A stretch of 64,000 nt of DNA from the NCBI GenBank assembly GCA_036310925.1, contig JAXJQX010000017.1:216-64215 (forward strand), read 5' to 3'. The notes below the pieces were generated by a model. That model ran no database searches. It saw nothing but the letters and a program-made list of their open reading frames with translations, and was not told where the DNA came from. Position 1 is the first letter of the stretch. Every line of letters begins with the position of its first letter. The translations under genes were made by a program, and so were the position numbers. Positions 13,256 to 64,000 of this stretch are shown in pieces. This stretch comes from Acutalibacteraceae bacterium. GTDB lineage: Bacteria > Bacillota > Clostridia > Oscillospirales > Acutalibacteraceae.

Positions 13256-13283
13256 GATATTATACCACAAACTTAAGTTAAAT

Positions 13284-45030: not shown

Positions 45031-45059
45031 TTGATCTTTTTGTCAAAATATGGTATAAT
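45031..45059 (+). promoter_or_regulatory. Promoter of the transposase fragment
   Basis: TTGATC, 17 nt, extended -10 TGgTATAAT (45051-45059). Confidence 0.6.
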
Positions 45060-45090
45060 TAAGCTATACTTTATAGGGGTGAGTTATAGT

Positions 45091-45753
45091 ATGGCTTTGG
45101 ACAAATCGGTATTGGTGGATATTCCCGAGCACGGAATAGCATACAAGAAGGTGTCCGGAAAAACTTATGTATATTATGTAACGGCTACCTACCGAAATAA
45201 AAAGGGGCAGCCCACCTGCGAACGTTCCTCAATAGGAAGATTGGATGAGGAAACGGGAAAGCTTATCCCTAACCGCAACTATTACGAAATATATTTAAAA
45301 AAGCCTGTCCCGCCAAAGAACGGAATTTTCGAATACGGTGTTTATGATGTGTTTGAACAGATATGCGGAAAGCTGGGACTTAAGAGGCTTTTGAAGAGAT
45401 ACTTCCCCGAAAACTATACCGAAATGCTCACAGCGGCACAGTATATGCTCTCCGAGGGCAATGTTATGTATTACATAAGCGACTATACCGAAACCCATAC
45501 CACCGCGCTAAAGGGTGTTTTGAGTAATGAAAAATGCAGTAAAATGTTCGCCGACTTAAGACAAGAGGATATGCTACTGTTTTTCAGGGAATGGATGAAG
45601 CACAAAAAAACCGACGAGTATGTTGCTTACGACGTCACAAGCGTTTCCTCATACAGTAAAAACATTACCGAGCTTGAATGGGGATATAACCGCGATAAGG
45701 AAAAGCTACCCCAAATAAATATAGGAATATATCACGGGAAATGCTCCTTTTAA
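45091..45753 (+). mobile_element. N-terminal fragment (~220 aa) of an IS4-superfamily (IS1634-like) DDE transposase
   Basis: ..GKTYVYYV.. N-terminal region and the first catalytic-Asp block YVAYDVTSVSSYS..GYNRD. The ORF stops where uxaC homology begins. No inverted repeats identified. Confidence 0.65.
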
Positions 45754-46885: not shown

Positions 46886-46886
46886 T

Positions 46887-47942: not shown

Positions 47943-48793
47943 TGCAAAAAAATGTCTTGAACACCGATTTAATGGGAAAGGTCGCGGTGGTAACGGGGGC
48001 TGGCGGAGTGCTTTGCTCGGCGTTTTCCAAAACCCTTGCACGTGCGGGAGCAAAGGTAGCCCTGCTTGACCTTAACTATGACGCGGCAAAGCAGTTTGCC
48101 GACGAAATTACCACCGAGGGCGGAATTGCAAAGGCATATAAGTGCAATGTGCTTGACAAAGCCGCTTGCTACGAGGTTGCGGACAAGGTCGAAAAGGATT
48201 TCGGCAAGTGCGATATTTTAGTAAACGGCGCGGGCGGAAACAACCCGAAAGCCACAACTGATAAGGAATATTTTGAATTAGGCGACATTGATGCCGACAC
48301 CAAAAGCTTTTTCGACCTTGAAAGCGACGGCGTGGGCTTTGTATTTAATCTTAATTTCTTAGGTACGCTTATTCCTACTCAGGCGTTTGCGCGCCAGATG
48401 GTCGGCAGAGAGGGCTGTAACATACTTAATATTTCGAGTATGAACGCATACACACCCCTTACCAAAATTCCCGCCTACTCGGGCGCAAAGGCGGCGATTT
48501 CAAACTTTACACAGTGGCTGGCTGTCCATTTCTCAAAGGTGGGTATCCGCGTAAACGCGATAGCACCGGGCTTTTTCTCAACCAAGCAGAATGCAAAACT
48601 GTTATTTAATGAAGACGGCACGCCCACAGCAAGAACAGGAAAAATCTTAGCCGCCACGCCTATGGGCAGATTCGGAGAGGCAAACGAGCTTGAGGGCGGA
48701 CTGCTGTTTCTCCTTAACAACGAGGCGGCGGGCTTTATAACAGGCGTTGTATTGCCGATAGACGGCGGATTTTCAGCATATTCGGGGGTATAA
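47942..48793 (+). CDS. SDR-family oxidoreductase (mannonate/fructuronate-reductase-type context)
   Basis: TGAGGVLC Rossmann motif, NGAGG, catalytic YSGAKAA, PG.F. Confidence 0.85.
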   Translation: MQKNVLNTDLMGKVAVVTGAGGVLCSAFSKTLARAGAKVALLDLNYDAAKQFADEITTEGGIAKAYKCNVLDKAACYEVADKVEKDFGKCDILVNGAGGNNPKATTDKEYFELGDIDADTKSFFDLESDGVGFVFNLNFLGTLIPTQAFARQMVGREGCNILNISSMNAYTPLTKIPAYSGAKAAISNFTQWLAVHFSKVGIRVNAIAPGFFSTKQNAKLLFNEDGTPTARTGKILAATPMGRFGEANELEGGLLFLLNNEAAGFITGVVLPIDGGFSAYSGV

Positions 48794-48796
48794 GAA

Positions 48797-49639
48797 ATGA
48801 ATGAAATTAAAATATATGCATTTGCGGACGAAGCAAGCCCCAATATCGATGAACAAATAACTGCGCTTAAAAGAAACGGACTTGACGGACTTGAAATTCG
48901 TAATGTTGACGGAGTGAATGTTTCAGACATTACACTAGAAAAAGCAAAAGAAGTAAAAACAAAGCTTGATGCAAACGGTCTTATAACTTGGTCAATAGGT
49001 TCTCCTATCGGAAAAATTGATATCGAAAAGGACGATTTCAAAGCGCATTTGGAAAAGTTAAAGCATACCTTGGAAATTGCCGATATTCTTGAAAGTAAGA
49101 ATATCAGAATGTTCTCATTCTATATGCCCGAGGGAAAAGATGTTTTGGACTACAAAAATGAGGTAATCGACCGTTTGGGTCAAATGTGTGAAATTGCAAA
49201 AACACACAATGTTTTCCTTTGCCACGAAAACGAAAAGGGGATATACGGTGATATTCCCGAAAGATGTCTTGAAATTCACAGGGCTCTGCCGGAGCTTAAA
49301 GGAATATTCGACCCCGCAAACTATGTTCAGAGCGGAGCTGATACCTTAAAGGCGTGGGAGTTACTAAAAGACTATATTTACTATATGCATATCAAAGACT
49401 CTAAAACGAACGGCACTGTTGTTCCTGCAGGTATGGGTGATGGTAATGTTGAGAAGGTTGTAAAGAATTTCATAGAAAAAGGCGGAAATTCTTTTACAAT
49501 TGAACCTCATTTGACAGTATTTGAAGGATTTTTTCATCTCGAACGCAGGGGAGAAACAAGTGTCATTACAGAATATGGATATCCGGATAGCAACACCGCT
49601 TTTGACGCGGCGTGCAATGCCTTTAAGGGGCTTTTATAA
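48797..49639 (+). CDS. Xylose-isomerase-like TIM-barrel protein (sugar phosphate isomerase/epimerase family)
   Basis: GLDGLEIR, ..HENE.., H.KD pattern typical of the AP_endonuc_2 fold. Confidence 0.75.
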   Translation: MNEIKIYAFADEASPNIDEQITALKRNGLDGLEIRNVDGVNVSDITLEKAKEVKTKLDANGLITWSIGSPIGKIDIEKDDFKAHLEKLKHTLEIADILESKNIRMFSFYMPEGKDVLDYKNEVIDRLGQMCEIAKTHNVFLCHENEKGIYGDIPERCLEIHRALPELKGIFDPANYVQSGADTLKAWELLKDYIYYMHIKDSKTNGTVVPAGMGDGNVEKVVKNFIEKGGNSFTIEPHLTVFEGFFHLERRGETSVITEYGYPDSNTAFDAACNAFKGLL

Positions 49640-49659
49640 CAGAAAGGAAGTACTTTAAT

Positions 49660-50409
49660 ATGGAAATAGGAGCTCAATTTTATACGTTGCGTGATTTCTG
49701 CAAAGACTTAGACTCCTTCGCGGAAACACTCAAAAAGGTGGCGGATATAGGCTATAGGACCGTACAGATTTCGGGAACATGCGGTTACGAACCTGAATGG
49801 CTAAAAAGCGAGCTTAAAAAGAACGGTCTTAAATGCATTCTTACGCATACGCCTGCGGATAAGCTGCAAAACGACCCCGCAAAGGTCGCGGCAGAGCATG
49901 ATGTGTTCGACTGTAAATACGTAGGGCTTGGCTGGTTCGGCTTTAATGAAGAAAAGGACGGTCAGCACTATGATGATTTTATCCGCATCTATAAGCCTGT
50001 GGCAAAGGCGCTTAAACAAAACGGAAAATACTTTATGTATCACAATCACGATCAGGAATTTAAAATGCATAACGGTAAGCTTATTCTTGAAAGACTTGCT
50101 GAGGATATGATCCCGGACGAAATGGGCTTTACGCTTGACACCTTCTGGGTTCAGGCGGGCGGCGGCGACCCCGCGCAGTGGATAGAAAGGCTTTCGGGCA
50201 GAGTACCGTGTATTCACCTGAAGGATTACGCATACGGCAGAAAAATGGCGGTAATAGGCGAGGGCAACATCAATTTCGACCGCGTTTTTGAAAAGGCGGA
50301 GTCTGCGGGAACAAAGTATATGCTTGTCGAGCAGGACGACTGCAACGGAGAAAATCCCTTTGACTGCTTAAAAAGAAGTTTTGAATATTTGAAATCGAGA
50401 GGGTTTTAA
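49660..50409 (+). CDS. Xylose-isomerase-like TIM-barrel protein (second copy, diverged)
   Basis: GYRTVQISG, YHNHDQEF, D.FW, IHLKD, VEQD motifs. Confidence 0.75.
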   Translation: MEIGAQFYTLRDFCKDLDSFAETLKKVADIGYRTVQISGTCGYEPEWLKSELKKNGLKCILTHTPADKLQNDPAKVAAEHDVFDCKYVGLGWFGFNEEKDGQHYDDFIRIYKPVAKALKQNGKYFMYHNHDQEFKMHNGKLILERLAEDMIPDEMGFTLDTFWVQAGGGDPAQWIERLSGRVPCIHLKDYAYGRKMAVIGEGNINFDRVFEKAESAGTKYMLVEQDDCNGENPFDCLKRSFEYLKSRGF

Positions 50410-50411
50410 TC

Positions 50412-51293
50412 ATGAAAAAAATTATATTGGGTACCGATTGGTGGACTGATTGCGATGACGCAGTAGCAATAAGAATACTTGCACGGACACATAAATCGGG
50501 AAAAATAAAAATTGCGGGAATCGGAATAAATGCTTGTATGGAACATTCCGTAACATCTCTTGAAGGCTTTTTAAATACAGAGGGTATACATGTGCCTATC
50601 GGAATAGATCTTGCCGCGACTGATTTCGGCGGCAATCCACCGTATCAAAAAAATCTTTCCAAATATTCTTCCGTGTATTCCTGCAATCAAGATGCGGAAG
50701 ACGCTGTAAGACTTTACAGACGCATTTTAGCCGATAGTGATGAATCTATCGAAATCATAGAAATAGGATATTTACAGGTTATTGCTAATGTTATTGAAAG
50801 TCAGCCGGATGATATTTCGCAAAAGAGCGGTTATGAGCTTGTTAAAGAGAAAGTTTCAAAAATTTGGGTTATGGCAGGAAAATGGGACGAAGATTTCGGC
50901 AAAGAAAACAATTTCACTAGGAATTCACGTTCAAGAACGGCGGGAAATATTTTTTGCAGTAAATGCCCGGTGTCTGTAACTTTTCTTGGTTGGGAAACAG
51001 GATATGATGTTATAACGGGAGATAATCTTAATAAAAACGATGTTCTTTATAAAGTTTTATGCGATCACGGCTCATCTGCCGGGAGGTCGTCTTGGGATCC
51101 AATGCTTGTTTTGATAGCACTTATCGGGGACGAGACGGCGGCGGGGTATGATTGTGTTTGCGGAACAGCTTCGGTTGACTGTGATACGGGTGCAAACCAT
51201 TTTTTGCCTGATAAAAACGGACCACATAAATATGTGATAAAAAGTAAAGAAAACGAATACTATAAAAAGCTTATAAATCAAATGATTATATAG
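50412..51293 (+). CDS. Nucleoside-hydrolase-like (IUNH-fold) protein, non-canonical
   Basis: N-terminus ILGTDWWTDCDDAVA (DxDxxxDD-like). Paralog of the truncated gene at 604-1566. Confidence 0.75.
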   Translation: MKKIILGTDWWTDCDDAVAIRILARTHKSGKIKIAGIGINACMEHSVTSLEGFLNTEGIHVPIGIDLAATDFGGNPPYQKNLSKYSSVYSCNQDAEDAVRLYRRILADSDESIEIIEIGYLQVIANVIESQPDDISQKSGYELVKEKVSKIWVMAGKWDEDFGKENNFTRNSRSRTAGNIFCSKCPVSVTFLGWETGYDVITGDNLNKNDVLYKVLCDHGSSAGRSSWDPMLVLIALIGDETAAGYDCVCGTASVDCDTGANHFLPDKNGPHKYVIKSKENEYYKKLINQMII

Positions 51294-51310
51294 TTAAGGA
51301 GGAATACAAA

Positions 51311-51865
51311 TTGGAAAAATATATACCTGTAGTAGTGATTAAAGAATTATCCGAAACCGATAAGATATTATCGGCTTTAAAGTCTAACGGCATAAACTGT
51401 GCCGAAATTACCTTTAGAACCGCCTGTGCAAAAGAGGCAATAGAGTATGCAATTAAAAATTACCCCGAAATGTCGATAGGAGCAGGAACGGTTATTAACG
51501 CCGAGCAGTGCAAACAAGCACTTGATTTGGGCTGCGAGTTTATTGTATCCCCGGGACTGTCGGCAGAGGTTGCAAAGCTTTGCAAGGAAAGAAATGTACC
51601 TTATTACCCTGGCTGTGTTACACCTACCGAGATTATGCAGGCACTTGATTTAGGCATTACAACCGTTAAATTCTTCCCCGCAAATGTTTACGGCGGTTTA
51701 AAGGCATTAAAGGCGCTTTCTGCTCCATTCCCACAGGTTAAGTTTATCCCTACAGGCGGGGTTGACCGCAGCAATATTGATGAATTTTTGGCATTTGATA
51801 AAATCGCGGCAATCGGCGGCAGCTTCTTTGTAAAGGAAGCGCTTGAAAAGATGGAGGAAAATTAA
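51311..51865 (+). CDS. eda: 2-dehydro-3-deoxyphosphogluconate (KDPG) / 4-hydroxy-2-oxoglutarate aldolase
   Basis: PVV......D......AL...GI...EITFRT, GAGTV, F.VSPG, G..T..E, VKFFPA (Schiff-base Lys), PTGGV. TTG start. Confidence 0.85.
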   Translation: MEKYIPVVVIKELSETDKILSALKSNGINCAEITFRTACAKEAIEYAIKNYPEMSIGAGTVINAEQCKQALDLGCEFIVSPGLSAEVAKLCKERNVPYYPGCVTPTEIMQALDLGITTVKFFPANVYGGLKALKALSAPFPQVKFIPTGGVDRSNIDEFLAFDKIAAIGGSFFVKEALEKMEEN

Positions 51866-52888
51866 ATGGCTAAGGTAGTTACTTTCGGCGAGTTAATGTT
51901 AAGACTTGCCCCTAACGGATATTACAGATTTTGTCAGAATGACCAGATGCAGGCGACCTTCGGCGGCGGTGAAGCCAACGTTGCGGTTTCGCTTGCTAAT
52001 TACGGTCTTGACAGCGTTTATGTGACAAAGTTGCCTAAACACGCTATCGGTCAAGCGGCGGTGAACAGCCTTAGATATTTCGGGGTTGACACCAGCAAAA
52101 TTGTTCGCGGCGGCGAGAGAGTAGGTATTTACTACCTTGAAAAGGGTGCGTCACAAAGAGGTTCTGTATGCGTTTATGACCGTAAGTATTCGGCTATTCA
52201 GCAGGCACAACCCTCCGATTTTGACTGGGACAGCATTTTTGAGGGCGCGGACTGGTTCCACTTTACGGGAATTACTCCCGCTTTAGGCGAAAACCTTGTA
52301 GAGATATGCAAGCAGGCTTGTATAGCCGCAAAGAAAAAGGGCGTAAAAAATTCCTGCGACTTAAATTACAGAGGAAAGCTTTGGACAAGGGAAGAAGCAA
52401 GAAAGGCTATGACCGAGCTTTGCAAATATGTTGATGTCTGCATTTCTAATGAAGAGGACGCTAAGGACGTTTTCGGCATTGAGGCAGAAAACACTGATAT
52501 TTACGGCGGCAAGCTCGATAAAGAGGGGTACAAGTCGGTAGCAAAGCAGTTAGCCGATAAATTCGGCTTTGAAAAGGTAGCGATTACCCTTAGAAGTTCA
52601 ATTTCCGCGAGTGATAACGACTGGGCAGGTATGCTCTATGACGGCGAGGATTGTTATTTCTCAAAAGAATATCATCTGCATATCGTTGACCGTGTAGGCG
52701 GCGGAGATTCTTTCGGCGGCGGGCTGATTTATTCCTTGCTTACGGGTAAATCTTCTAAGGACGCTATTGAGTTCGCGGTCGCCGCAAGCGCCTTAAAACA
52801 CTCGGTCGAGGGCGACTATAACCGCGTGTCTGTCTCCGAGGTAGAAAAGCTTGCCGGCGGCGACGGCTCGGGCAGGGTACAGAGGTAG
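51866..52888 (+). CDS. kdgK: 2-dehydro-3-deoxygluconokinase
   Basis: VVTFGELMLRL.P, FGGGEANVA, PfkB C-terminal DRVGGGDSFGGGLIY. Confidence 0.9.
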   Translation: MAKVVTFGELMLRLAPNGYYRFCQNDQMQATFGGGEANVAVSLANYGLDSVYVTKLPKHAIGQAAVNSLRYFGVDTSKIVRGGERVGIYYLEKGASQRGSVCVYDRKYSAIQQAQPSDFDWDSIFEGADWFHFTGITPALGENLVEICKQACIAAKKKGVKNSCDLNYRGKLWTREEARKAMTELCKYVDVCISNEEDAKDVFGIEAENTDIYGGKLDKEGYKSVAKQLADKFGFEKVAITLRSSISASDNDWAGMLYDGEDCYFSKEYHLHIVDRVGGGDSFGGGLIYSLLTGKSSKDAIEFAVAASALKHSVEGDYNRVSVSEVEKLAGGDGSGRVQR

Positions 52889-53024
52889 ATATTAAGGTAT
52901 TATTTCTCTAAAATATGTTCGTTCGGGCTAACCGTGTGTCTGTTTGCTTATTTCACTGTATTACATCACAGACATAATAAATTTATGGATTTATTAATTA
53001 ATAAAATAAATGGAGTGTAATCTT

Positions 53025-53810
53025 ATGAACATTGAAGAATATATTCAAAACGAAAACGAAAAGCCGCTTGATAATATTGTGTCTGACGGCGGATTTACCG
53101 CAATTTTCCGCACAATCTCCTGTATAGGCGACAGCCTTTCCTCAGGCGAGTTCGAATCGTTAAAGGCGGACGGCAGTCACGGATTCCACGATATGTTTGA
53201 ATACTCCTGGGGACAGTTTTTGGGCCGTATGTGCGGAAGCCGCGTTTACAACTTTTCCCGCGGCGGTATGACCGCAAAGGAATACTGCGAGAACTTTGCC
53301 GATGCAAACGGCTTCTGGAACCCTAAATACGCCTCTCAATGCTATATAATCTTCCTGGGAGTGAACGATATTATCTGTCAAAGGCAAGAGGTGGGCTCAG
53401 TAAACGATGTCGATTTTTCGGATTATAAGAATAACACGAAAAATTTTGCGGGATATTACGCCCAAATAATACAGCGTTTAAATCAAATTCAGCCCCGCGC
53501 AAAATTTTTCCTTATGACTATGAACAGCAGCGGCGAAAACGATTTGCGCATTAAAGACAAACAGGAGCACGCGGCGCTCCTTTACGATTTTGCCGAAAAA
53601 TTTGATAACACCTATGTACTCGACATGCTTAAATACGCGCCGAAGCACGACGAAAAATACTGCGAAAAATTCGGTCTTCTCGGGCATGCAAACCCTATGG
53701 GCTATCTGCTTACGGCGAAGATGACGGCGTCCTACATAGATTATATAATCCGTCATAATATGGATGATTTTAAAGAGGTCGGCTTTATAGGTACAAGCCT
53801 TCACGGATAG
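53025..53810 (+). CDS. SGNH/GDSL-family hydrolase
   Basis: CIGDSLSSGE, RGGMTA, LGVNDI. Start moved to the ATG behind GGAG. Confidence 0.8.
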   Translation: MNIEEYIQNENEKPLDNIVSDGGFTAIFRTISCIGDSLSSGEFESLKADGSHGFHDMFEYSWGQFLGRMCGSRVYNFSRGGMTAKEYCENFADANGFWNPKYASQCYIIFLGVNDIICQRQEVGSVNDVDFSDYKNNTKNFAGYYAQIIQRLNQIQPRAKFFLMTMNSSGENDLRIKDKQEHAALLYDFAEKFDNTYVLDMLKYAPKHDEKYCEKFGLLGHANPMGYLLTAKMTASYIDYIIRHNMDDFKEVGFIGTSLHG

Positions 53811-53922: not shown

Positions 53923-55106
53923 GGTGGGACCTTTTCCACCTATGCAGAATTTAGAGATACACAAGCCCCACAGAGCAAGAAGCTCCGTGGGGCTTGTGCA
54001 ATAGTGTGCTCGGCACGCATAATAACTTGGCGGTGAAAGTCCGCTACAGGCTTGGCAGTAGGAAATGTTAGCTGAAGACAAGGGCGTCCGTCGTGAGGCG
54101 GAGTCTGAAAGAAGTCGGAGGCAAAACCTCGGTCTGACTAACAGAAACTGCATATAAGGCATACTTGAAACGGACGAGTTTCCACAACAAAACGAAGTCC
54201 AATACTGCCCGAATTTCAAGGTGTAAATGCGGCAGATATATGAGGCTAAGGTGATTACGCTTACCCGAGGAGGTCTTGCAGGCGGAATAATTTCCGTAGT
54301 AACAACGAACTGCAAGAAGTCAGCAGAGGTCATAGTACCGAAAATAATTTTTTCGGGAAGGACCGAACAATCATAAGTTCCGAGTAAGAAACTAAAGGAG
54401 GTCGGTATGATGAAAACAGAATACGCCGGAAACGGCGGCTTCCTGCAAAGGGATAGTGTGGAACACGAAGAGTATGCAGAAGTGTACAGTACCGAAAGTC
54501 GAGAGGTTGACCGAAAGGACGGGGCAGACCTGCTTGAAAAGGTGCTGAGCAGAGATAATCTGAACAAAGCTTACAAGCGGGTAAAAGCCAATAAGGGAGC
54601 AAGCAGAGTTGACGGAATATCCGTCGATGAGGCACTGCCTTGGCTTAAAGAACACAGGAATGAATTACTCGAAAGTATAAGGAACGGCAAATACAAGCCG
54701 TCGCCTGTAAGGAGAGTAGAAATTCCAAAGGATAACGGGGGAGTGAGAAATCTCGGAATACCGACAGTTATAGACCGCATTATCCAACAAGCAATAGCAC
54801 AAGTGCTAATACCAATCTATGAGCCAAAGTTTTCTAACGGAAGCTACGGCTACAGACCGCACAGAAGTGCAAAGGACGCAATACTCAAGGTAAAGGAATA
54901 TGCGGACGAGGGGTACAAATATGCAGTATGCCTTGATTTATCCAAATATTTCGATACACTCAACCACGAACTGCTTATGAATATGCTCCGCGAGGACATC
55001 AAGGATAAGAGACTGATTGATTTAATCAAGAATTATCTTAGAAGCGGAGTAATGGAAAACGGCATAGTAATGAAAACGAAAGAGGGTTCGCCGCAGGGCG
55101 GATTAA
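53923..55106 (+). mobile_element. Group II intron, 5' part only (ribozyme domains I-III/IV plus N-terminal ~230 aa of the reverse transcriptase/maturase)
   Basis: Starts GTGCTG. ~480 nt of structured non-coding sequence (GGCGGTGAAAGTCCGCTACAGGC...). IEP ORF 54407-55111 carries RT blocks 0-4 (RVDGISVDE.., RRVEIPKDNGGVRNLGIPTVIDR, YGYRP.RS, DLSKYFDT, EGSPQGG) and breaks off before the YADD block. Confidence 0.85.
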
Positions 55107-55217
55107 GATAATATTAGTTTAAAGAAGGAAATTCATTATGAGAAGTAAAATCTCAGATAATCGGCAGAAATCGCAATAACTGAAACTCAACTTCTCATAA
55201 CAAACAACTTTCCATAA

Positions 55218-55669: not shown

Positions 55670-56452
55670 CTAAGGGTTTGAGCTGTGGTTTTTCTTATAT
55701 TCTGTCGGAGACATTTTAAAATGCTTTTTAAAGCAGTTGTTAAAGCTTCTGATACTTTGAAAACCGCTTTCCATTGCAATATCCACAAGCTTTTTGTCCG
55801 ACTGTTCCATCAGTCCGACTGCTGTTTCGAGTCTGTAAAGTGTTAAAAATTCGGAAAAAGACATCTTAAAAACAGTATGAAAATATCTCGATACATAGTG
55901 ATAATCATATCCTAACAGCTTGCCTATGTTAGAAAGCTTAATGTCCTTTGTGTGATTTTTTTCGATATATTCGGTTATGACGGCTATGTTTTCGTCGATT
56001 TTTTTATTCTTATCGGTCAGCTTAGCCGATTTAATGTATTCGTCGCATACCGCGTAGAGCGCCGCCTTAATAATAAGGCGCGACGGTTCGGGGTTATTAA
56101 TCAGGTTCTCGGTCATAAATCGGGTAACTGACGGACTGCAGTTAAATTTAAAATCTCCCGTTTTGTCCTTGATCATTTTATAAAAGTCGTGCACATAATC
56201 CTCGGAGAAAACGCAAACCCAATAGCTTGTATCCTTTTGAGGCTCATAGGCGTGAATATCGTAAGGAAAGCAAAGCCCGAAATCATCCTGCTTTATCAGA
56301 TATTCGATTCCGTTTGAATAGCATTTAAGGCTTCCGTTTATAACATAAACAAGCTCAAGACTCTTATGAAAATGCTGTTTCCAAATCTCCGTTGTATATA
56401 ATACGGCATTAAAACTATTGTTCAATGAATTATGGGGTTGATGAAAAATCAT
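55670..56452 (-). CDS. AraC-family transcriptional regulator (cupin N-terminus), divergent from the GRE locus
   Basis: HFHKSLELVYVING cupin region. C-terminal HTH ..IGKLLGYDYHYVSRYFH.., IAMESGFQSIRSFNNCFKK....SPTEY. Confidence 0.85.
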   Translation of the reverse strand: MIFHQPHNSLNNSFNAVLYTTEIWKQHFHKSLELVYVINGSLKCYSNGIEYLIKQDDFGLCFPYDIHAYEPQKDTSYWVCVFSEDYVHDFYKMIKDKTGDFKFNCSPSVTRFMTENLINNPEPSRLIIKAALYAVCDEYIKSAKLTDKNKKIDENIAVITEYIEKNHTKDIKLSNIGKLLGYDYHYVSRYFHTVFKMSFSEFLTLYRLETAVGLMEQSDKKLVDIAMESGFQSIRSFNNCFKKHFKMSPTEYKKNHSSNP

Positions 56453-56561
56453 AATAAAACCGCCTTAGATAAAATTATGCCAATATTATACAATATTGTG
56501 CGAGAAAAAGTCAACTGTTTGCCTTATAATTATATCGTACCAATACGAAAGGAATGATATA

Positions 56562-58556
56562 ATGACTTCGACTTTTGAAAAGCTTTATAATTTTATCGTA
56601 AACAAGGAACATCATAAATACCGTCATACGGTAGACTTTAAGCTTTCCGAGGAATATTCGGCAAAGGGTATTTCGCCTATTGAGCGTATGTCCGACCGAT
56701 TTCGCCGTATGTGTGGGGAGGAAAAGGCGGTAATTCTTGAGGGTGAGCAGATAGTGTTTTTGCGCACCGTTTCAAATTTGCCCGATATTTTTACAGAGTC
56801 CGAATGGGCGGAAATTAAAGCAAAGCATTATATTCACGAGCTTGGGTATATGTCTAATCTATGCCCCGACTATTACGACGCCATAAGCAAGGGACTGCTT
56901 GAAAAACGTAAAATCGCCGATGAATACGGAAAAGCGGCGATAGATAACATTATTATGCTTTCGGATAAATATTTAGAGGAGGCCAAAAGACAGGGCAGAG
57001 AGGATTTAGTTGAAATCCTGACCCGCGTTCCGCGCTATCCCGCCCGTAATTTCCGAGAGGCGCTGCAGTTTTTCAGAATTTTGCATTACGCTCTGTGGCT
57101 GGAGGGTAACTACCATAACACGGTAGGTCGGTTTGACAAATATATGTATCCCTATCTTAAAGCCGATATGGAAAAGGGCATATATACAGAGGAAACCGCT
57201 TTGGAATTACTTTGCGACTTTTTCCTTTCCTTTAATAAGGATAGTGACCTTTATGTCGGTGTTCAACAAGGCGACAATGGGCAGAGTATGATGTTAGGCG
57301 GAATAGACGAAAACGGAAACGATGTTTATAATCTGTTGTCGGAATTGTGCCTTAAAGCCTCATACAACAATAAACTTATTGACCCCAAGATTAATCTCCG
57401 TGTTTCAAAGGCTACTCCCGCTGAACGTTATACCGAGGCAACCCAACTTACTAAGGCGGGACTCGGTTTTCCGCAGTATTCTAATGATGACATAGTTATT
57501 CCCGCTTTGGAAGAACTCGGTTATGAGTATAACGATGCCGTAAATTACACGGTAGCGGCTTGTTGGGAATTTATTATTCCGAATGTGGGAGCGGATATCG
57601 CAAATATATCCGCAATGTCTTACCCTAAGGCAGTAGATATTGCATTACATAATAATCTTGAAAAATCCGATTCCTATGATGAATTTTTTATGAGCGTAAA
57701 GGCAGAAATCAAAAAGGAATGTGACAAAATTGCAGATGGCATAAAGGACCTTTGGTTTGTTCCATCGCCGTTTATGAATGTGCTTATGGATTGTGATATT
57801 TATAACGGCGGAAAATATAACAATTTCGGTATTCACGGTACAGGTATTGCTACTGCGGCAGACAGCCTTGCGGTAATAAAGAAATATGTTTTTGAAGAAA
57901 AAACCATAGGAAAGTCAGAGCTTATTAAAGCAGTAGACGAAAACTTTGAAAATACACCGGAGCTGCTTCACAAGCTTCGCTATGAAGCACCGAAGCTTGG
58001 CAATAACGATGATTTTGTCGACGGTATTGCAACAGAGCTTTTAGACAGCTTTGCTGAAGCGTTAGAAGGAAAGACCAACTGTAGGGACGGTATATATCGT
58101 GCGGGAACAGGAAGTGCAATGTATTACCTGTGGCATGCTGACGAAATCGGCGCATCGCCCGACGGCAGACGTGCAAAGGAACCCTTAGGCACAAACTTTT
58201 CGGTATCACTTTTTGCAAATGTAAAAGGTCCGGTATCGGTAATAGCCTCTATGACAAAACAGCATTTTGTAAATGCTATAAACGGCGGACCGCTTACTCT
58301 TGAATTTCATCAAAGCGTATTTGCAGATGATGACGGAATAGAAAAAGTAGGGCTCCTTGTTAAGAATTTTATAGACAGAGGCGGTCACCAATTACAGTTG
58401 AATACAGTGAATCTCGAAAAAATGCTTGACGCACAAAAGCACCCTGAAAACTATAAGCAGTTGGTAGTGCGTATATGGGGCTGGAGCGCTTACTTTGTTG
58501 AACTTGACAAGGAGTACCAAGACCATGTAATAGCAAGACAGGCATATAGCGTATAA
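56562..58556 (+). CDS. Glycyl radical enzyme (PFL-fold), compact 664-aa form, function unassigned
   Basis: ASPDGRRAKEPL, Cys loop TVAACWEF (Cys 57561-57563), GGHQLQLNTVN, glycyl-radical motif LVVRIWGWSAYF (Gly 58479-58481). Start moved to the ATG behind AAAGGAA. Confidence 0.85.
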   Translation: MTSTFEKLYNFIVNKEHHKYRHTVDFKLSEEYSAKGISPIERMSDRFRRMCGEEKAVILEGEQIVFLRTVSNLPDIFTESEWAEIKAKHYIHELGYMSNLCPDYYDAISKGLLEKRKIADEYGKAAIDNIIMLSDKYLEEAKRQGREDLVEILTRVPRYPARNFREALQFFRILHYALWLEGNYHNTVGRFDKYMYPYLKADMEKGIYTEETALELLCDFFLSFNKDSDLYVGVQQGDNGQSMMLGGIDENGNDVYNLLSELCLKASYNNKLIDPKINLRVSKATPAERYTEATQLTKAGLGFPQYSNDDIVIPALEELGYEYNDAVNYTVAACWEFIIPNVGADIANISAMSYPKAVDIALHNNLEKSDSYDEFFMSVKAEIKKECDKIADGIKDLWFVPSPFMNVLMDCDIYNGGKYNNFGIHGTGIATAADSLAVIKKYVFEEKTIGKSELIKAVDENFENTPELLHKLRYEAPKLGNNDDFVDGIATELLDSFAEALEGKTNCRDGIYRAGTGSAMYYLWHADEIGASPDGRRAKEPLGTNFSVSLFANVKGPVSVIASMTKQHFVNAINGGPLTLEFHQSVFADDDGIEKVGLLVKNFIDRGGHQLQLNTVNLEKMLDAQKHPENYKQLVVRIWGWSAYFVELDKEYQDHVIARQAYSV

Positions 58557-58568
58557 AGAGGAGTTATT

Positions 58569-59318
58569 ATGCAGGATTATAAAAATAAAAAAATTTTGTT
58601 TATGGGTGACAGTATAACGGCACTTGGTGTTTGGGTTAAGTATTTCATTGAAATTATGAAACCCGAAAAATATGTAAATATTGCTGTTAGTTCTGCAACA
58701 TGGAAAGATAACGCAAATACAATATATGATGGTAATCCGCTGTTTAACGGTCCTGATGCAAATGTGAATAATAAAGTATGTAATCAGGTTGAAAAATTGT
58801 TGCGAGGCAAAGACAACAAAAATAAAAATTATATATATAATCCCGATTATGAAGATTTTGATATTATAGTCGTTTCAGCCGGAACAAACGACTGTGGAAT
58901 TGAAGAAATAGATAGTATTGAAAAAGAAATATACAGTCAGTTTTTTGATGATAACGGAGATTTGCTTTCGCTTGGTAAGGTTGATTGCAAAACTATGGCA
59001 GGAGCATTGCGTTATACTTATGAACATTTAAGAAGAATGTATCCTAATGCCGTTATTTGCTATTGTTCGCCAATTCAAGGTGCCGAAGATGTAAGACCTT
59101 ATTCGTCAATAAAACTGAAAAGAGATTATATTAGTGCATTTTGCGAACATATTTCCGATGTGAAGTTTATTGACACTTTTAAGTGTGGAATTTGTGGTGC
59201 TTACGAAAAATGGCAGTGTAGCGGACCGAATCTTGCTGACGGACTTCATCCAAACGATAACGGTGCCAAAAAGATTGCTTTGTTTAATGCACAGTCAATA
59301 AAGGAATATTATTTGTAA
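58569..59318 (+). CDS. SGNH/GDSL-family esterase embedded in the GRE locus
   Basis: Block I FMGDSIT, block III SAGTNDC, block V DGLHPNDNG. RBS AGAGGAG. Confidence 0.82.
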   Translation: MQDYKNKKILFMGDSITALGVWVKYFIEIMKPEKYVNIAVSSATWKDNANTIYDGNPLFNGPDANVNNKVCNQVEKLLRGKDNKNKNYIYNPDYEDFDIIVVSAGTNDCGIEEIDSIEKEIYSQFFDDNGDLLSLGKVDCKTMAGALRYTYEHLRRMYPNAVICYCSPIQGAEDVRPYSSIKLKRDYISAFCEHISDVKFIDTFKCGICGAYEKWQCSGPNLADGLHPNDNGAKKIALFNAQSIKEYYL

Positions 59319-59319
59319 T

Positions 59320-60120
59320 ATGATTTACGGAAATATTTTTGATGTCAAGGAAATGGCGGTGCATGACGGCCCCGGAATCAGAACAACCGTGTTCTTTAAG
59401 GGTTGTCCTCTGCGCTGTAAGTGGTGTCATAATCCGGAGGGACTTTCCTCAAAGCCACAACTTATGTACAAGGAAGCAAGATGCGTTAAGTGTGGCAGAT
59501 GTATGACAAAATGCAATCATACAGATTGTCAGCCTTTCGGTAGATGTATTCATATCTGCCCGCAAAACTGTCTTGAAATATCGGGCAAAACGGTTGATGC
59601 AAAGGTATTAGCCGAGGAACTAAAGCAAAGCGCCGAAATATTGGCAGACAGTTTCGGCGGCTTTACCTTTTCGGGCGGCGAACCGCTCTTTCAGTCTGAA
59701 TTTCTTATGGAATTGATTGATGAATTAAAAGATTATCATCTTTGTATAGAAACTTCGGGCTATGCCGAAAAGGCGGTCTTTGAAAGAGTAATCGAAAAAC
59801 TTGATTTTATTATTATGGATATTAAGTTTTCAGACAGTGAACAGCATAAAAAATACACAGGTGTAAGAAACGAAAAGATTTTGGAAAATTTTGCGGCGCT
59901 TAAAAAAAGCGGAAAGCCGTTTTTAATCCGCACGCCGCTGATACCGAATATTACCGATACTGCGGAAAACCTTGACGCCATAAAACAGCTTATAGGAACA
60001 AGCGATTGGGAGCAACTGCCGTACAATAAAATGGCGGGAGCCAAATACAAAATGCTCGGAATGAGCTATGAATTATCTACTCTTAGAAGCGGCAGTGATA
60101 AGCCGGCGTGCCGGTTTTGA
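59320..60120 (+). CDS. Glycyl-radical enzyme activating protein (radical SAM)
   Basis: HDGPGIRTTVFFKGCPLRCKWCHNPE (CxxxCxxC), auxiliary clusters CVKCGRCMTKC and C..ICPQNC, GG.TFSGGEP. Confidence 0.9.
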   Translation: MIYGNIFDVKEMAVHDGPGIRTTVFFKGCPLRCKWCHNPEGLSSKPQLMYKEARCVKCGRCMTKCNHTDCQPFGRCIHICPQNCLEISGKTVDAKVLAEELKQSAEILADSFGGFTFSGGEPLFQSEFLMELIDELKDYHLCIETSGYAEKAVFERVIEKLDFIIMDIKFSDSEQHKKYTGVRNEKILENFAALKKSGKPFLIRTPLIPNITDTAENLDAIKQLIGTSDWEQLPYNKMAGAKYKMLGMSYELSTLRSGSDKPACRF

Positions 60121-60670
60121 GCGTTTTACCCTTATTTCAGAATCCTTTTTTTATTAAATGTTTAACTTTCTTTAAAATGTCCTTTTACTTGTTCATATTA
60201 GCGCCTCCGGAGAGGAGTATACTTCACTCTGGAGGCGCTTTGCCATAATTGTGCATTTTGATTATTTTTGCAATGTTTATGATGAAATTAACAATTTGAT
60301 TGTGCGAATTATTTTGATATAATTAAAACAAAGATAGAAAAGTAGACTGATTGTTTAAAATAGAGGCAGTAATGCTTATTGCTTCTGTCGGCAGGCACTT
60401 CTACTTGGCGTTGCGGTGACCGCCACAAATTTTGGAAAGGACGCTTTGCTCTATTAACGGCTTTTGCCGTGTAAATCAACTCTTTTATGACAAATATGTT
60501 GTAACAAAGGGGGAAGAAAACACAAGTGCTTGTATCCCAAATCTTGCGACAGGTTAGTAGTACTGTTTGTTAAAAAAAGGGGGGAAGAAAATGAAATGTT
60601 AAAATTTTTGGGTTATTGTTTAAACTGAGAACCCTATACCATACAAACCGATAAGAAAGCAAACGGCTTT

Positions 60671-62383
60671 TTGGCGAAGAGCAGGCAATATGTCAAAAAA
60701 TTAAATACTATGCGGCTTGAAATGCTCCGAAAAAAGTTGTTCGGTTTTGTTTTAGTCATAAGCATTTTAATATCCTCGGTTTTTTCGGTAGATATGCTAA
60801 ATACGGCTGCCGCCGCTGAATCCACAGACGGTAAAATGCTGCATATAACTTCTAAAGTAGGTTCGTGGGTCAATCCACTGAGATTATACACGCTCGAAGT
60901 CGGCAAAGAATACAACTTTTCGGTAGATTATTGCGTCAAATCAAACAATTTAGCAACAGAAAATGCAAATGGCAAGGATTTATTTGTCGTCGCAGCCGAC
61001 AGTTATGAAAAATATATTTCTGATACAAGAGGCATCTGTACCTTTGACTATACGCCTCAAAAAAATCAAATATATTTTGGTGTAAAAACAAACTCTAAAG
61101 ACGGCAGTTCCTATCAAGCTTATGCTTGGAACTTTATGGTTACCGATAATGTTACAGGCGAAGTAATTAAACCCACCACAGAGATTACTGGTACGGAAAC
61201 AGCAGAATGGGTTGATTATAACGAATATAAATTCCTTACAGGATATTCATTACAATCAAAAAATACCGGTTCTGCAAGCTGGGAAACTGCAATATTTAAA
61301 GCTACCGGCTTAGCAGGTGGCACCTACAATTTTGAATTTGATTATTACATTGATTACAACGGTGCTTTGGCTACGGGCTACAATGGCGCTCCTACTAACA
61401 TTTTCTTTAAAACACAGGGTTATCAAAGTGCTTCTAACAAAAATGGTGCGCAAACATATATAATCAACACGGGCAAAGGACATCACAAGGGTTCATATAC
61501 AATATCAAGTGACGGTGATTGCTATTTTGAGCTTGCAACAAAAACTAATAGTACAGCCGATGTTACATTGTATCTTTGGAATATTAAATTCACCAACTCG
61601 GATAATCAAGAATTTTCGTGGTCTATATCCGATAAGCATTCAACTTATTTTACAGCAGTAACAGAATTTAATGCCGAAAATACAGGTTACCTTAACCCGA
61701 TGTATAAGTTTGATAACACCGATAACTCTACTTGGAATACCGTAGCAGGTACTTTCAATAATCTTACCGCAGGTGAATATACCTTAAAGTTCGATTATTA
61801 TGTTTCAAAAGCTATCACTTTAGATTCCAACAGCGGAACTAGTAACTGTACCTTCAAAACCAAAGTGGGTAATAATTCATCCTCTAACGATGGAGATGAA
61901 TATATTACCACAACCGGCCGTGTAACCACCTATTCCCGTACTTTCACCACAACCGGAACTACTGCCTACTTTGAGATAGGCGCTAAGAGAAAGACTACAA
62001 ATAACTTCATAGTATATGCTTGGAATATTCGTTTAGAGGATGCTTTCGGTAACGAATACAAGACTTTCTATAGCATAGGTAATTTCGTTACCAAGCAAGA
62101 CTACAATGAGGCGGCTATAATAACTGCCGTTGATTGTCTGCCGGAGGTTTCTGGTGCTAAAATTCTTATTCCTCAAGAAGTAAGCGGCACGCAAAAACTC
62201 AGAATAGATGTAGATTTCAGCAAGCTTAAAAACAGCGTTGATGCAGGAGTAAAAGTCAAGGCATACGGTGTTATAGCAGTTCCTGTTAATAGGACTGATA
62301 TAGATTTAGATTACATATTGTCTGTGGCTACAGAAAAAATATTATTAAAAGAACCGTATCAAACGGCGGCTTGGATAAATTAG
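60671..62383 (+). CDS. Secreted multi-module (CBM-like repeat) protein, N-terminal reading frame
   Basis: Signal-peptide-like LRKKLFGFVLVISILISSVFS. Three ~120-aa repeats ending in the YxWNxxxT/E motif (YAWNFMVTD, YLWNIKFTN, YAWNIRLED). Start uncertain (TTG 60671 or ATG 60710). Stops at TAG 62381. Confidence 0.7.
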   Translation: MAKSRQYVKKLNTMRLEMLRKKLFGFVLVISILISSVFSVDMLNTAAAAESTDGKMLHITSKVGSWVNPLRLYTLEVGKEYNFSVDYCVKSNNLATENANGKDLFVVAADSYEKYISDTRGICTFDYTPQKNQIYFGVKTNSKDGSSYQAYAWNFMVTDNVTGEVIKPTTEITGTETAEWVDYNEYKFLTGYSLQSKNTGSASWETAIFKATGLAGGTYNFEFDYYIDYNGALATGYNGAPTNIFFKTQGYQSASNKNGAQTYIINTGKGHHKGSYTISSDGDCYFELATKTNSTADVTLYLWNIKFTNSDNQEFSWSISDKHSTYFTAVTEFNAENTGYLNPMYKFDNTDNSTWNTVAGTFNNLTAGEYTLKFDYYVSKAITLDSNSGTSNCTFKTKVGNNSSSNDGDEYITTTGRVTTYSRTFTTTGTTAYFEIGAKRKTTNNFIVYAWNIRLEDAFGNEYKTFYSIGNFVTKQDYNEAAIITAVDCLPEVSGAKILIPQEVSGTQKLRIDVDFSKLKNSVDAGVKVKAYGVIAVPVNRTDIDLDYILSVATEKILLKEPYQTAAWIN

Positions 62384-64000
62384 GCACAGTAAAGGTTATT
62401 ATTAACCGTGACAGTACAGCTTACGGTAAACGCTCTGCTGTGACCGCTTTTGTAGAAACCGAAAACGGCATTTATTATTCAAACAACAATAACGGTACTG
62501 CCGTAACAAACGGAATTGCAAGTAAATCGGTTATGGGTGTCATAAAGGCTGTGTTTAATGATACAAACGGTCAGATATATCTCAATAAGGATGCGGCACT
62601 CAGCAAATGCCTTCAGGACGAACAACTGAAAGCCACACTTGGTGAAGAAAACTTTAATAACTACTATATTAACAAAATCTTTTGCGGATATATGGGTTAT
62701 TACGGGTATACTCCAATCACTACAACAAGTGAAGAATACAGTATTGCAAAACTTATAACGGCTTATATGTATTACTACGCCTCAAACGGAGAAGGACCGA
62801 AAATGTTGAAGCTTTCAAGTTATTACTTAGATAGGGAAACTTATACTATACAAACCGATAAGGAAGTAAAGCAGCAGTTTGGCACAGATTATAACGGTGT
62901 TGAAATTAAACCGAACACAACCTATGTGTTTACATTTGAATATTATTCTACTAAAGATATGGTTGAGGCGTCCGCAATACGCAAAACTATTACTGCGCGT
63001 GAGGGTTATCTCGCAGATAGTCACTTGTGGGAAACCTGGTCTGATGCAAAACAGAAGTACCGCCGAGGGATATTATTAGAAGCAGGTCGGGGCTCGTTCA
63101 GTTATGAATTCACCACCGCAGCTGATGAAACTAATTTTGCTTTAGGCTTTGCACAGGGCACATTGGGCCATAGCTATATCTGGAATATAAAGCTTACCGA
63201 AAAGGGTCACGACGAAAACCTGTTTGTAAATCCGGGATTTACAAACAGCTTCAACGGGTGGCAAATACCTACGGCGGTTGGGCAGGCAAAATTGTTAGAG
63301 CCTGACGAAGCTATGCAAGACTTACCCTTAGGCGAGTATTTACCCGATTCGGCAAACGCTTTTTATGATGAAAACACTTGGGAAATAGGAGTAAGCGATA
63401 AAACCGACGCTCCTGTAACCGAAAATACAGCTATTCTTTATAATAAGCAAAACAGTAGCTATGACGATGCTGCCGAAACCAAACGGCAAGAGATAGTAAA
63501 TGCCTCCGATACACTGCTTGATGAATATAATGCACTTAACTATTTTACCTCTCCGAAAAAATCGGAATGCGAGGTGTATTATATTTCACCGAACGGAAAC
63601 GACAGTAACGACGGCACTTCCGAAAGCACCGCTTGGAAAACCACAAATAATTTAGCTGATTTATACACTAAATTTGAAAAGGATGAAATCACAAACGGTA
63701 CTATATTCAAAACTACGGTTAAAAGGCTGTATATACTGTTTGAACGGGGCGGTGTTTACCGCGGTCATTTTGAGCTGAAGTCTAATATCAGCTACGGGGC
63801 ATACGGTACCGGGTATAAGCCAACCTTCTATTCGGGTACGCAAAACTATGCCGACGAATACCTTTGGCATCAAACCTCAGCAGAGAATATTTGGGCAGTT
63901 AATGTCGGCGATGCTTCCGATATTGGAAATGTTATTTTTGATAACGGTAAAAAGTGCGGTATAAAAATATTGGACGGGTACGAATCTCTGCTGCAGGATT
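62299..64000 (+). CDS. Continuation of the same protein in the -1 frame (4th CBM-like repeat plus start of a right-handed beta-helix domain); runs off the window
   Basis: Stop-free frame from 62299 to 64000, not in the ORF track because it has no stop in the window. Contains YIWNIKLTE and VYYISPNGNDSNDGTSESTAWKT, which is typical of the start of pectate-lyase-fold proteins. Confidence 0.7.

Follow-up and report, generated by a model that had tools for sequence, protein, structure and literature searches.

We describe a compact glycyl radical enzyme (GRE) operon in a stretch of 64,000 nucleotides (the window) from an Acutalibacteraceae bacterium (GenBank assembly GCA_036310925.1, contig JAXJQX010000017.1, positions 216 to 64,215). 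The operon is real and intact: it encodes a GRE of 664 residues (56562-58556, plus strand) together with its activating partner, a radical S-adenosylmethionine (SAM) enzyme of 266 residues (59320-60120, plus strand), and an SGNH/GDSL hydrolase lies between the two. The kind of system is known, a GRE/activase pair of the Cys-x-Glu (CxE) class. What is found here is a distinct, abundant and uncharacterised variant of it, with a compact build, an active-site signature of its own and a minimal two-gene set that lacks the usual downstream partners, and a new substrate class is probable. As to function, about half of our confidence goes to a CxE-type radical C–O eliminase or lyase that would act on a free, neutral, plant-derived sugar of monosaccharide size. 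The novelty is tempered by the fact that uncharacterised GRE clades are already known; a review of the superfamily counts whole clades that are still without an assigned function (PMC13450708).

The enzyme and its catalytic residues

The 664-residue protein matches the Pfam profiles PF02901 at 2.3e-84 (aligned from profile position 229 only) and PF01228 at 1.9e-19 (residues 553-646), and the activase matches PF04055; these are the three profiles that a preliminary description of this DNA had named for a check. The motifs quoted in that description are all found. The Cys loop reads TVAACWEF (57549-57572, plus strand) and places Cys334, the predicted site of the thiyl radical, beside the clade-specific Trp335 and Glu336, the predicted general base of the CxE motif; as first described, the loop is Cys-x-Glu and not Cys-Cys. 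Further motifs are ASPDGRRAKEPL at residues 531-542 and GGHQLQLNTVN at residues 607-617. The glycyl radical loop, RIWGWSAYF (58470-58496, plus strand), contains Gly640. The Trp that had been noted at the variable position of the RVxG motif is there, but the loop reads R-I-W-G-W, with the Val also changed to Ile, and this Trp is not a peculiarity of the protein but the consensus (RVWG) of the entire branch.

In a pairwise alignment with glycerol dehydratase (GD), Cys334 and Glu336 pair with Cys433 and Glu435 of GD, and Gly640 pairs with its radical glycine (RIWGWSAYF versus RVAGYSAQF), which places the proposed Cys and Gly at the catalytic positions. The CWE of the Cys loop aligns with GCVEP of GD and with GC[VI]E of PflD and YbiW, and all GRE eliminases (C-O, C-N, C-S) and isomerases retain the CXE motif (PMC13450708). 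The AlphaFold2 (AF2) model, with a predicted local distance difference test (pLDDT) score of 96.2 and a predicted template modelling (pTM) score of 0.94, has the GRE barrel. A Foldseek search with it returns more than 40 GRE structures at template modelling (TM) scores of 0.85-0.89 (normalised by the query) and 21-26% identity, among which GD, propanediol dehydratase (PD), CutC, PflD and HypD are about equal.

Is any characterised GRE close to the protein? None is: identities are 21-27%, the protein clusters tightly with no characterised clade, and every NCBIfam cutoff is missed, in agreement with the earlier judgement that the locus maps onto no described GRE pathway. The best sequence matches in the PDB are GD, PD, PflD and HypD, at 260-221 bits. 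TIGR01774 (the PFL2-3 subfamily) reaches 308 bits against a cutoff of 678, aligned from profile position 229 only, and membership of that subfamily is not supported. Assignment to an NCBIfam equivalog (HypD, HpsG, HpfG, PflD, CutC, IAD or HPAD) is ruled out by scores that fall 4-7-fold under the cutoffs. Pyruvate formate-lyase is ruled out as well, by the missing Cys-Cys pair (the loop is A-A-C-W-E) and by a TIGR01255 score of 90 bits against 994. The protein is 100% identical to one from an Acutalibacteraceae metagenome-assembled genome (MAG) that the databases name 'pyruvate formate lyase family protein', and this label is a misnomer. Aminoacyl radical variants, with Ala, Ser or Thr at the radical position, are ruled out by the retained Gly640. 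From sequence and model together, we take the protein to be a genuine and probably active GRE that stands outside any characterised GRE family. No enzyme listed in the June 2026 review of the superfamily (PMC13450708) matches it, and a full-text literature search found no account of a short, SGNH-linked or DUF4867-linked GRE.

A clade of short enzymes with its own signature

The protein is unusually short, as had been suspected. Full-length catalytic chains of PFL-like GREs in the PDB (E < 1e-10) have 739-897 residues versus 664 here, leaving aside a weaker match of 687 residues and the 127-residue GrcA. The best 120 database relatives of the enzyme are more than 82% identical to it and are 659-722 residues long, nearly all of them 659-664, and therefore the shortness is a trait of a clade and not a truncation; by alignment, it comes mostly from N-terminal deletions. 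Relative to GD, the second half-barrel lacks about 24 residues, and gaps of about 65 and about 31 residues precede the first active-site loop and the His185 loop, respectively. In GREs, N-terminal helices form the conserved dimer interface (PMC13450708), and since it is this dimer-forming region that is trimmed, the oligomerisation of the short enzymes may differ from that of canonical GREs.

Close relatives of the enzyme are found in 417 species-level genomes, and the best 80 of these, on which all our locus statistics are based, carry GREs that are 74-88% identical across species. Most of the carriers are gut MAGs, from ruminants and humans, of Acutalibacteraceae, Oscillospiraceae or 'Clostridia'. 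A wider search, in 1.84 billion representatives clustered at 50% identity, adds GREs of 650-709 residues that are 38-63% identical to the query and can be aligned with it from end to end (P0121 and P0124-P0150, for example, over query residues 1-663). Under this level come ordinary GREs of 720-810 residues, which align only from about residue 140. In a neighbour-joining (NJ) tree of the representatives, calculated from the shared core of the alignment, the short GREs form a single contiguous block.

The block has a signature, Asn99 / His185 / Gly240 / Cys334-Trp335-Glu336 / Gly517 / Glu581 / Trp639-Gly640. It differs from the pattern of every characterised GRE and is complete in the window protein; of the 28 representative clusters with intact catalytic residues, about 26 also have it in full. 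The exceptions have one substitution each (Asp at 581 in P0147, Gln at 185 in P0156), and Gly640, Cys334 and the C-W-E triplet are invariant within the clade. Two further representatives, P0128 and P0172, have lost the catalytic Cys, the Glu and the radical Gly (reading, e.g., 'AAGSCF' and 'VCVRDWRAL') while the remaining fold is kept, and may be degenerate or non-catalytic paralogues or pseudogenes. Adjacent groups of the tree (e.g., P0157, P0164, P0168, P0213 and P0232), with 664-815 residues, share Asn99, Cys-Trp-Glu and Trp639-Gly640 with the short clade, and have Leu (or Tyr) at 185, Ser or Ala (Gly in a few) at 517 and no Glu at 581. These groups probably represent additional specificities, as yet uncharacterised, on the shared scaffold.

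Probable remodelling of the active-site pocket

The residues around the radical machinery, compared by sequence alignment, differ from those of the known eliminases. Two tyrosines of GD, Tyr339 and Tyr640, which shape its small pocket, are replaced by glycines, Gly240 within a conserved 'QQGDNGQS' and Gly517 within 'GTGSAM'; at position 240 the alignment is ambiguous for PflD, where two alignments conflict. The histidine of the 'GH' motif (His164 in GD, His160 in HypD, His156 in E. coli PflD, His165 in YbiW) aligns with Asn99. In GD, His164 protonates the departing hydroxyl (PMC13450708). In HypD, His160, Asp278 and Phe340 are each individually essential by mutagenesis, and the equivalent positions build the eliminase active site (PMC7077986); their presumed equivalents here, mapped through GD numbering, are Asn99, Asn186 and Gly240. 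With Asn99, Gly240 and Gly517, the enzyme has neither the general acid nor the tyrosine pocket of the GD type. Since the eliminase histidine is an asparagine and both pocket tyrosines are glycines, the alignments imply that the radical machinery and the CxE base are retained inside a substrate shell that has been rebuilt to be larger and polar.

The activase and the layout of the operon

The activase (PF04055 and Fer4_12) scores 267 bits with TIGR02494 against a cutoff of 174. Its CX3CX2C motif is Cys29/33/36, and behind it stands a compact ferredoxin-like insert with 8 Cys (C55-C84) that is conserved in the clade; these extra cysteines would be enough for the two auxiliary clusters that the preliminary description had read into the protein. 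The insert is wholly absent, as in the activating enzyme of pyruvate formate-lyase (PFL-AE), from the activases of two distant members of the short clade (L081:620-1372 and L087:10091-10798), and other activases of the clade have two canonical CxxCxxCxxxC motifs. With no insert, a compact insert with 8 Cys or two motifs, the auxiliary clusters therefore vary within one GRE clade. An activase adjoins the GRE in 71 of the 80 loci, and 5 of the 9 exceptions are at contig ends. The conserved unit is the GRE with its activase, and the remainder is accessory.

The four open reading frames (ORFs) that had been described for the locus are confirmed with their coordinates and spacings. The GRE starts at the ATG at 56562: a ribosome-binding site (RBS), AAGGA, lies ahead of it and the homologues begin at the same Met, and therefore the longer TTG-initiated ORF from 56496 is not the gene. 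The SGNH/GDSL hydrolase (58569-59318, plus strand; 249 residues, PF13472) follows the GRE after 12 nt, and the activase follows the hydrolase after 1 nt. With gaps as small as these, the three plus-strand genes are almost certainly co-transcribed. A hairpin of about -33 kcal/mol with a weak T-tract (60200-60238, plus strand), 80 nt past the stop codon of the activase, is a possible terminator of the operon; it was not called in a consensus terminator scan. Upstream, on the minus strand, lies the AraC-family regulator (55670-56452; 260 residues), which has the N-terminal AraC_binding (cupin) domain and the C-terminal HTH_18 domain expected from the earlier description. A divergent orthologue of it, at 32-86% identity and about 100 nt upstream of the GRE, is present in about 31 of the 75 loci that could be evaluated. 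The intergenic region between regulator and GRE (56453-56561, 109 nt) holds the RBS and promoter-like hexamers on both strands, these being consensus matches alone. An Rfam scan found no riboswitch or other RNA element near or upstream of the operon.

The SGNH esterase and DUF4867

The SGNH protein has its catalytic blocks intact, namely GDS with Ser15, GTND with Gly105 and Asn107, and DGLHPN with Asp224 and His227, all of them invariant or nearly so in 41 homologues. Its AF2 model (pLDDT 95.7) has the SGNH fold. No signal peptide was found in the SGNH proteins of the operons, and we describe the protein as cytoplasmic. The SGNH proteins of the operons are one orthologous group (47-88% identity), and they come from a small subfamily, which makes up 96 clusters in 5.8 billion proteins. 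An orthologue stands between GRE and activase in 12 of the 80 loci, from 12 other species-level genomes, and these are scattered on the GRE tree. The order GRE-SGNH-activase is thus conserved elsewhere, and yet the preliminary description went too far in making the esterase an integral step ('deacylate, then radical chemistry'), since it is absent from 68 of the 80 loci and patchy on the tree, which leaves it at most an optional branch. A dedicated partnership with the GRE is ruled out by divergent subfamily members in unrelated contexts: proteins at 47-51% identity are found next to a PBP, in a locus for surface polysaccharide and within a prophage/IS66 region. Nor does the fold point to a specificity, as the structural neighbours are remote and mixed (the carbohydrate esterases Axe2, Est24 and CE2, PAF acetylhydrolase and putative lipases); a search of the PDB by sequence gave no match. 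The esterase is an optional extra.

The same slot between GRE and activase is held by a DUF4867 protein in 7 of the 80 loci (including L006, L007, L009, L011 and L074), and in one locus (L018:8001-12900) DUF4867 and SGNH stand there together. DUF4867 has been described as a cupin metalloprotein of aldose/ketose pathways (including that of sulfoquinovose), for which the role of a mutarotase or ring isomerase was proposed, not shown (PMC11968277). In the supplement to the same paper, a few DUF4867 neighbourhoods (Dorea longicatena, Clostridium sp. D5) include Pfams of GREs and radical-SAM proteins, on which no comment is made (PMC11968277), and a functional link between GREs and DUF4867 appears to be previously unreported. 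The position of DUF4867 in the clade of the window enzyme parallels that of aldose 1-epimerase in another branch. A sulfonate substrate, an idea that comes from the link of DUF4867 to sulfoquinovose, is ruled out at the level of alignment, where the sulfonate-binding positions of IslA and HpsG show neither Arg nor Gln, nor a clade-specific Arg or Lys.

Gene neighbourhoods across the clade

What accompanies the pair in other genomes? Neighbours in the 80 loci were taken from a tblastn table, and a Pfam census was made of the 140 nearest ORFs, in which the top 25 families were considered. The recurrent families are GDSL/SGNH (15), DUF4867 (7), melibiase (5) and GH51 (4; GH, glycoside hydrolase), and the other recurrent families look like housekeeping genes. 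Among these top 25 there is no family of aldehyde or alcohol dehydrogenases, phosphotransacylases, kinases, phosphotransferase system (PTS) components, aldolases, transporters or microcompartment proteins. Likewise, the Pfam-annotated ORFs of the window from roughly 26 to 62 kb include no gene for aldehyde or alcohol processing or for a GRE microcompartment. The absence of microcompartment, aldehyde dehydrogenase and transporter partners that had been noted at the window locus is thus also seen in the census.

Within the clade of the window enzyme, neighbours in some loci are SGNH, DUF4867, GH36, GH51, GH78, GH63-like, GH94, CE4 (CE, carbohydrate esterase) and SASA proteins and a transporter of the major facilitator superfamily (MFS). 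In a subset of loci, one same-strand operon reads unknown protein of 633 residues, GH36 (raffinose-synthase-like), DUF4886, AraC, GH36 (melibiase-like), GRE, DUF4867 (in some) and activase, and is continued downstream by GH94, GH78, a GH63/MGH-like enzyme, SASA, a beta-lactamase-fold protein and CE4, or an MFS transporter. The only NCBIfam match of the melibiase-like GH36 is a weak one, to beta-L-arabinopyranosidase. A single orthologous GH36 partner across the subclades is ruled out, for the GH36-like neighbours come from different and barely related subfamilies.

The more distant branches differ in detail. In a sister clade (P0121, 63% identity) a LacI regulator flanks the run class II ketose-bisphosphate aldolase, GRE, activase, second class II aldolase, SftI/FucI-like isomerase, XylB-like FGGY kinase and GH36-like protein, with a GH29 nearby; one further locus (L130) has the same isomerase, aldolase, kinase and LacI set with a sugar transporter of the ATP-binding cassette (ABC) type. 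In another branch (L081, L105, L108, L110, L122, L140 and the L113 group), a sugar-binding regulator of GntR/LacI type flanks the run activase, GRE, sugar:H+ porter (PF00083) and aldose 1-epimerase, often with GH127, GH51, GH43 or GH39 downstream and in places within a SusC-type locus. Other representatives show SGNH-GH125-GH3-GRE-activase-AraC-ABC transporter (P0124), a ribose-type ABC transporter followed by activase, GRE, TIM, YjbQ and SIS and further on an AraA-like protein (P0126), an iron alcohol dehydrogenase (Fe-ADH) followed by GRE, activase, a NagB-like protein and an amidohydrolase (NagA-like) and further on SASA (P0127), and GH36-like-sugar porter-GRE-activase (P0130).

A sugar context is present in every sampled branch of the short clade, and the carbohydrate setting proposed at first for the window locus extends, with its glycosidases, sugar porters and sugar-type regulators, across the clade. 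Since a porter and a mutarotase adjoin the GRE in the branch of L081, the neighbourhood argues for a free, cyclic, unphosphorylated aldose as the substrate in that branch. The recurrence of GH51, GH127 and GH43 (L-arabinose-releasing), of GH36 (alpha-Gal or beta-L-Arap type) and of tagatose-type aldolases loosely suggests a galacto-configured sugar, to which we attach low confidence. For the suggested sugar- or polysaccharide-derived substrate, a free sugar of monosaccharide size is favoured, and a polysaccharide is not.

A proposed reaction and its alternatives

Gene content, catalytic residues, fold, clade signature and neighbourhood statistics are observed; the CxE motif and the gene context are the grounds on which we infer the substrate class, the type of reaction and what the accessory genes do. 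The operon would be a substrate-inducible catabolic module, controlled by an AraC-type sensor, whose essential parts are the GRE and its dedicated activase. As the conserved residues would have it, the activase puts the radical on Gly640, from where it passes to Cys334, and the resulting thiyl radical takes a hydrogen atom off a carbinol carbon of the substrate. The motif and the context suggest the steps beyond this point: Glu336 would deprotonate the hydroxyl to give a ketyl radical, the ketyl radical would lose a beta C–O leaving group, by dehydration or by ether or ring C–O cleavage, and the hydrogen atom would be handed back to the product. For the loss of the leaving group there is precedent both in the 1,2-eliminases GD, PD and HypD and in the isomerases YbiW and PflD (PMC13450708). 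Because the usual histidine is Asn99, an alternative acid would be needed; help might come from His185, Asp238 or Glu581, or the leaving group might be one that needs no acid. The substrate would be set free in the cytoplasm from plant glycans and might, loosely, be L-arabinose, D-galactose or a close derivative. DUF4867, or aldose 1-epimerase in other branches, would provide the right ring or anomeric form, and the SGNH protein could serve as an optional helper that removes O-acyl groups from the sugar or, conceivably, opens a lactone product.

A bolder form of the proposal, to which we give an outside chance, makes the short clade the first GREs that act directly on an unphosphorylated cyclic aldose. 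The reaction might then be an anomer-specific 1,2-dehydration by radical chemistry, in which a pyranose of galacto configuration (L-arabinose or D-galactose) reacts at C1/C2 and yields a 2-deoxy-aldonolactone; the mutarotase or DUF4867 would give the anomer and SGNH would be an optional lactonase or deacetylase. If an unphosphorylated aldose is indeed the substrate, hundreds of gut and rumen species have a redox-neutral, ATP-independent radical entry to sugar catabolism. If the substrate is a free sugar, radical chemistry of the 'anhydroglycolysis' type extends past the two known phosphosugar isomerases, and there is an unrecognised step in the fermentation of plant fibre. GREs perform difficult anaerobic reactions that shape gut metabolism, among them the formation of trimethylamine (TMA), H2S, p-cresol and propionate. 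The system should be easy to test in a heterologous host, as a compact pair of genes (664 and 266 residues) with a defined regulator, and the clade recommends itself for study by its size, its conservation and its steady association with sugar genes.

Several points weigh against a free sugar as the substrate. As many as 50 of the 80 loci are without any recurrent accessory gene and the neighbourhoods within the enzyme's own clade are highly variable, so the sugar assignment depends on the smaller share of the loci, together with relatives at 45-63% identity, whose specificities may be different. The nearest sequence relatives, GD and PD, use C3 diols and not sugars. The size and polarity of the pocket are read from alignments, one position of which (240) is ambiguous for PflD, and Asn99 in place of the general-acid histidine would bar a textbook dehydration of the GD type, such that another acid must be assumed. 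Finally, L-arabinose and D-galactose are ordinarily catabolised without radical chemistry, and some less common sugar that occurs alongside them may be the real substrate.

Four other explanations have to be weighed against it. The SGNH protein, placed at gaps of 12 nt and 1 nt between GRE and activase, invites an obligatory two-step route, in which it deacylates a sugar or oligosaccharide, the GRE acts next and the triad is the functional unit. The same order recurs in the 12 other genomes, whose GREs fall into several distinct parts of the tree; SGNH/GDSL is the commonest nearest-neighbour family (15/140); and other esterases (DUF4886, SASA, CE4, beta-lactamase fold) recur close by an SGNH protein whose catalytic blocks are intact. 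We nevertheless think this route unlikely, as the 68 loci without SGNH have an equally conserved GRE, the slot may hold DUF4867 instead, or both, and the subfamily occurs in unrelated contexts with a fold uninformative on specificity. Likewise unlikely, in our estimate, is a trimmed small-diol dehydratase that would convert glycerol, 1,2-propanediol, ethylene glycol or a short hydroxy-aldehyde from sugar cleavage to an aldehyde. GD and PD are the top matches by sequence and fold, the protein has the CxE motif, the GRE of the sister clade lies amid an isomerase, a kinase and class II aldolases that would yield lactaldehyde or glycolaldehyde, and an iron alcohol dehydrogenase adjoins the GRE in one relative. 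The identity to GD and PD is about 24%, however, TIGR01774 stays at 308 versus 678, GD His164 is Asn99 and both pocket tyrosines are Gly; nor do the top neighbour families include an alcohol or aldehyde dehydrogenase, a phosphotransacylase or a shell protein, and a sugar porter and a mutarotase beside the GRE would make no sense for a C2 or C3 diol.

The two remaining explanations keep closer to other characterised GREs. A small, polar, non-carbohydrate substrate from plant glycoconjugates, perhaps an amino acid of the hydroxyproline type out of arabinosylated extensins, or the aglycone of an osmolyte such as glycerate or an inositol, would suit the GH127 beta-L-arabinofuranosidase that comes after the porter in two loci. 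GH127 beta-L-arabinofuranosidase trims arabinosides linked to hydroxyproline (Hyp). Such a substrate would also suit the MGH1-like and GH63-like hydrolases of glycosyl-glycerate-type solutes in extended loci, and HypD is among the better matches; yet we consider it very unlikely. The positions essential in HypD are not kept, NF043068 gives 284 where its cutoff is 1100, the porter that recurs belongs to the sugar-porter family and stands with aldose 1-epimerase, and the regulators are of sugar type (AraC, LacI, GntR-PBP). It is also very unlikely, finally, that the enzyme is an 'anhydroglycolysis' isomerase of the YbiW/PflD type, which would open a phosphorylated 1,5-anhydro-hexitol ring to a 1-deoxy-ketose phosphate. 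Among characterised GREs, sugars are acted on by YbiW and PflD alone, which have the CxE mechanism and the fold (TM 0.85-0.89) in common with the short enzyme, and the aldolases that flank the sister-clade GRE recall fsaA beside ybiW. Set against this are an identity of 25-27%, a score of 252 with NF007437 against a cutoff of 1109, Asn at the 'GH' histidine, the lack of an adjacent PTS or kinase in the enzyme's own clade and the non-phosphorylating MFS and ABC importers that accompany its relatives. A free, unphosphorylated anhydro-alditol would be a case of the free, neutral sugar that we prefer, and not of this isomerase.

Surroundings of the operon in the window

The window region 45031-53810 holds a hexuronate cluster with UxaC, UxuA, an SDR protein, two xylose-isomerase-like TIM-barrel proteins (one of them weakly IolE-like), an unknown protein of 293 residues, a KDPG aldolase and a KDG kinase. 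The UxaC ORF (353 residues) aligns from Pfam profile position 106 only; its N-terminal part may have been lost, or may be split off into the ORF of 240 residues before it, which has no Pfam match. The same region encodes a second cytoplasmic SGNH hydrolase, just 20% identical to that of the operon. Between the hexuronate and SGNH genes and the GRE locus sits a degenerate group II intron (54087-55111). Rfam finds its D1-D4 at 54087-54363 (RF02001, 135 bits; RF01998, 57 bits) and did not find D5/D6; its reverse transcriptase (RT) ORF is truncated, with 234 residues and RVT_1 matched to profile position 123 of 205. A functional tie of the operon to the hexuronate cluster is ruled out by the intervening intron and by the presence of a KDG kinase in just 1 of the 80 loci.

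Downstream of the operon, where a giant secreted CBM/beta-helix protein had been proposed, ORF 60671-62383 encodes 570 residues with a signal- or transmembrane-like N-terminus and no Pfam match, and another frame, of 566 or more residues, runs open from about 62302 up to the window's end. The region 60671-64000 holds either two adjoining genes or a single, very large secreted protein interrupted by a frameshift. Elsewhere in the window there are a tRNA, a 5S rRNA and a tRNA at 52-393, probably the end of an rRNA operon, a cobalamin riboswitch aptamer at 13083-13284 on the minus strand, upstream of minus-strand genes (RF00174, 39 bits with a gathering score of 31.5), and a tRNA at 34141-34214.

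Comparison with known glycyl radical enzymes

PflB belongs to the same superfamily and differs by its Cys-Cys pair, which is absent here. HypD (trans-4-hydroxy-L-proline dehydratase, PDB 6VXC) has the same architecture of the radical machinery, and its model is the second-best match, at 284 bits after the 308 of TIGR01774; the score is well under the cutoff of 1100, however, and the essential HypD residues are not conserved. The nearest enzymes by sequence are GD (Clostridium butyricum DhaB1, PDB 1R8W/1R9D) and PD (Roseburia inulinivorans, PDB 5I2A/5I2G; also 9RCO), at 260 and 248 bits and TM scores of 0.87-0.89. With these the short enzyme shares the 10-stranded barrel, the Cys-x-Glu loop, the C-terminal glycyl loop and an activase with a Cys-rich insert. 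It differs from them in an identity of about 24%, in length (664 versus 787-843 residues) and in its top 25 neighbour families, which include none for 1,3-propanediol, aldehyde processing or microcompartments.

YbiW and PflD (PDB 8ID7, 8ID0, 8YJO), the C–O lyases of 1,5-anhydroglucitol-6-P and 1,5-anhydromannitol-6-P, resemble the proposed enzyme in the CxE motif and in C–O cleavage through a ketyl radical. Aldolase genes lie near ybiW and pflD in E. coli, as they do near the GRE of the sister clade. The two enzymes are longer (765-810 residues), keep the 'GH' histidine and are 25-27% identical to the short GRE. They are linked to PTS components or a sugar phosphatase, and also to fsaA, whereas the links of the short clade are to glycosidases, mutarotase-type proteins and porters that do not phosphorylate.

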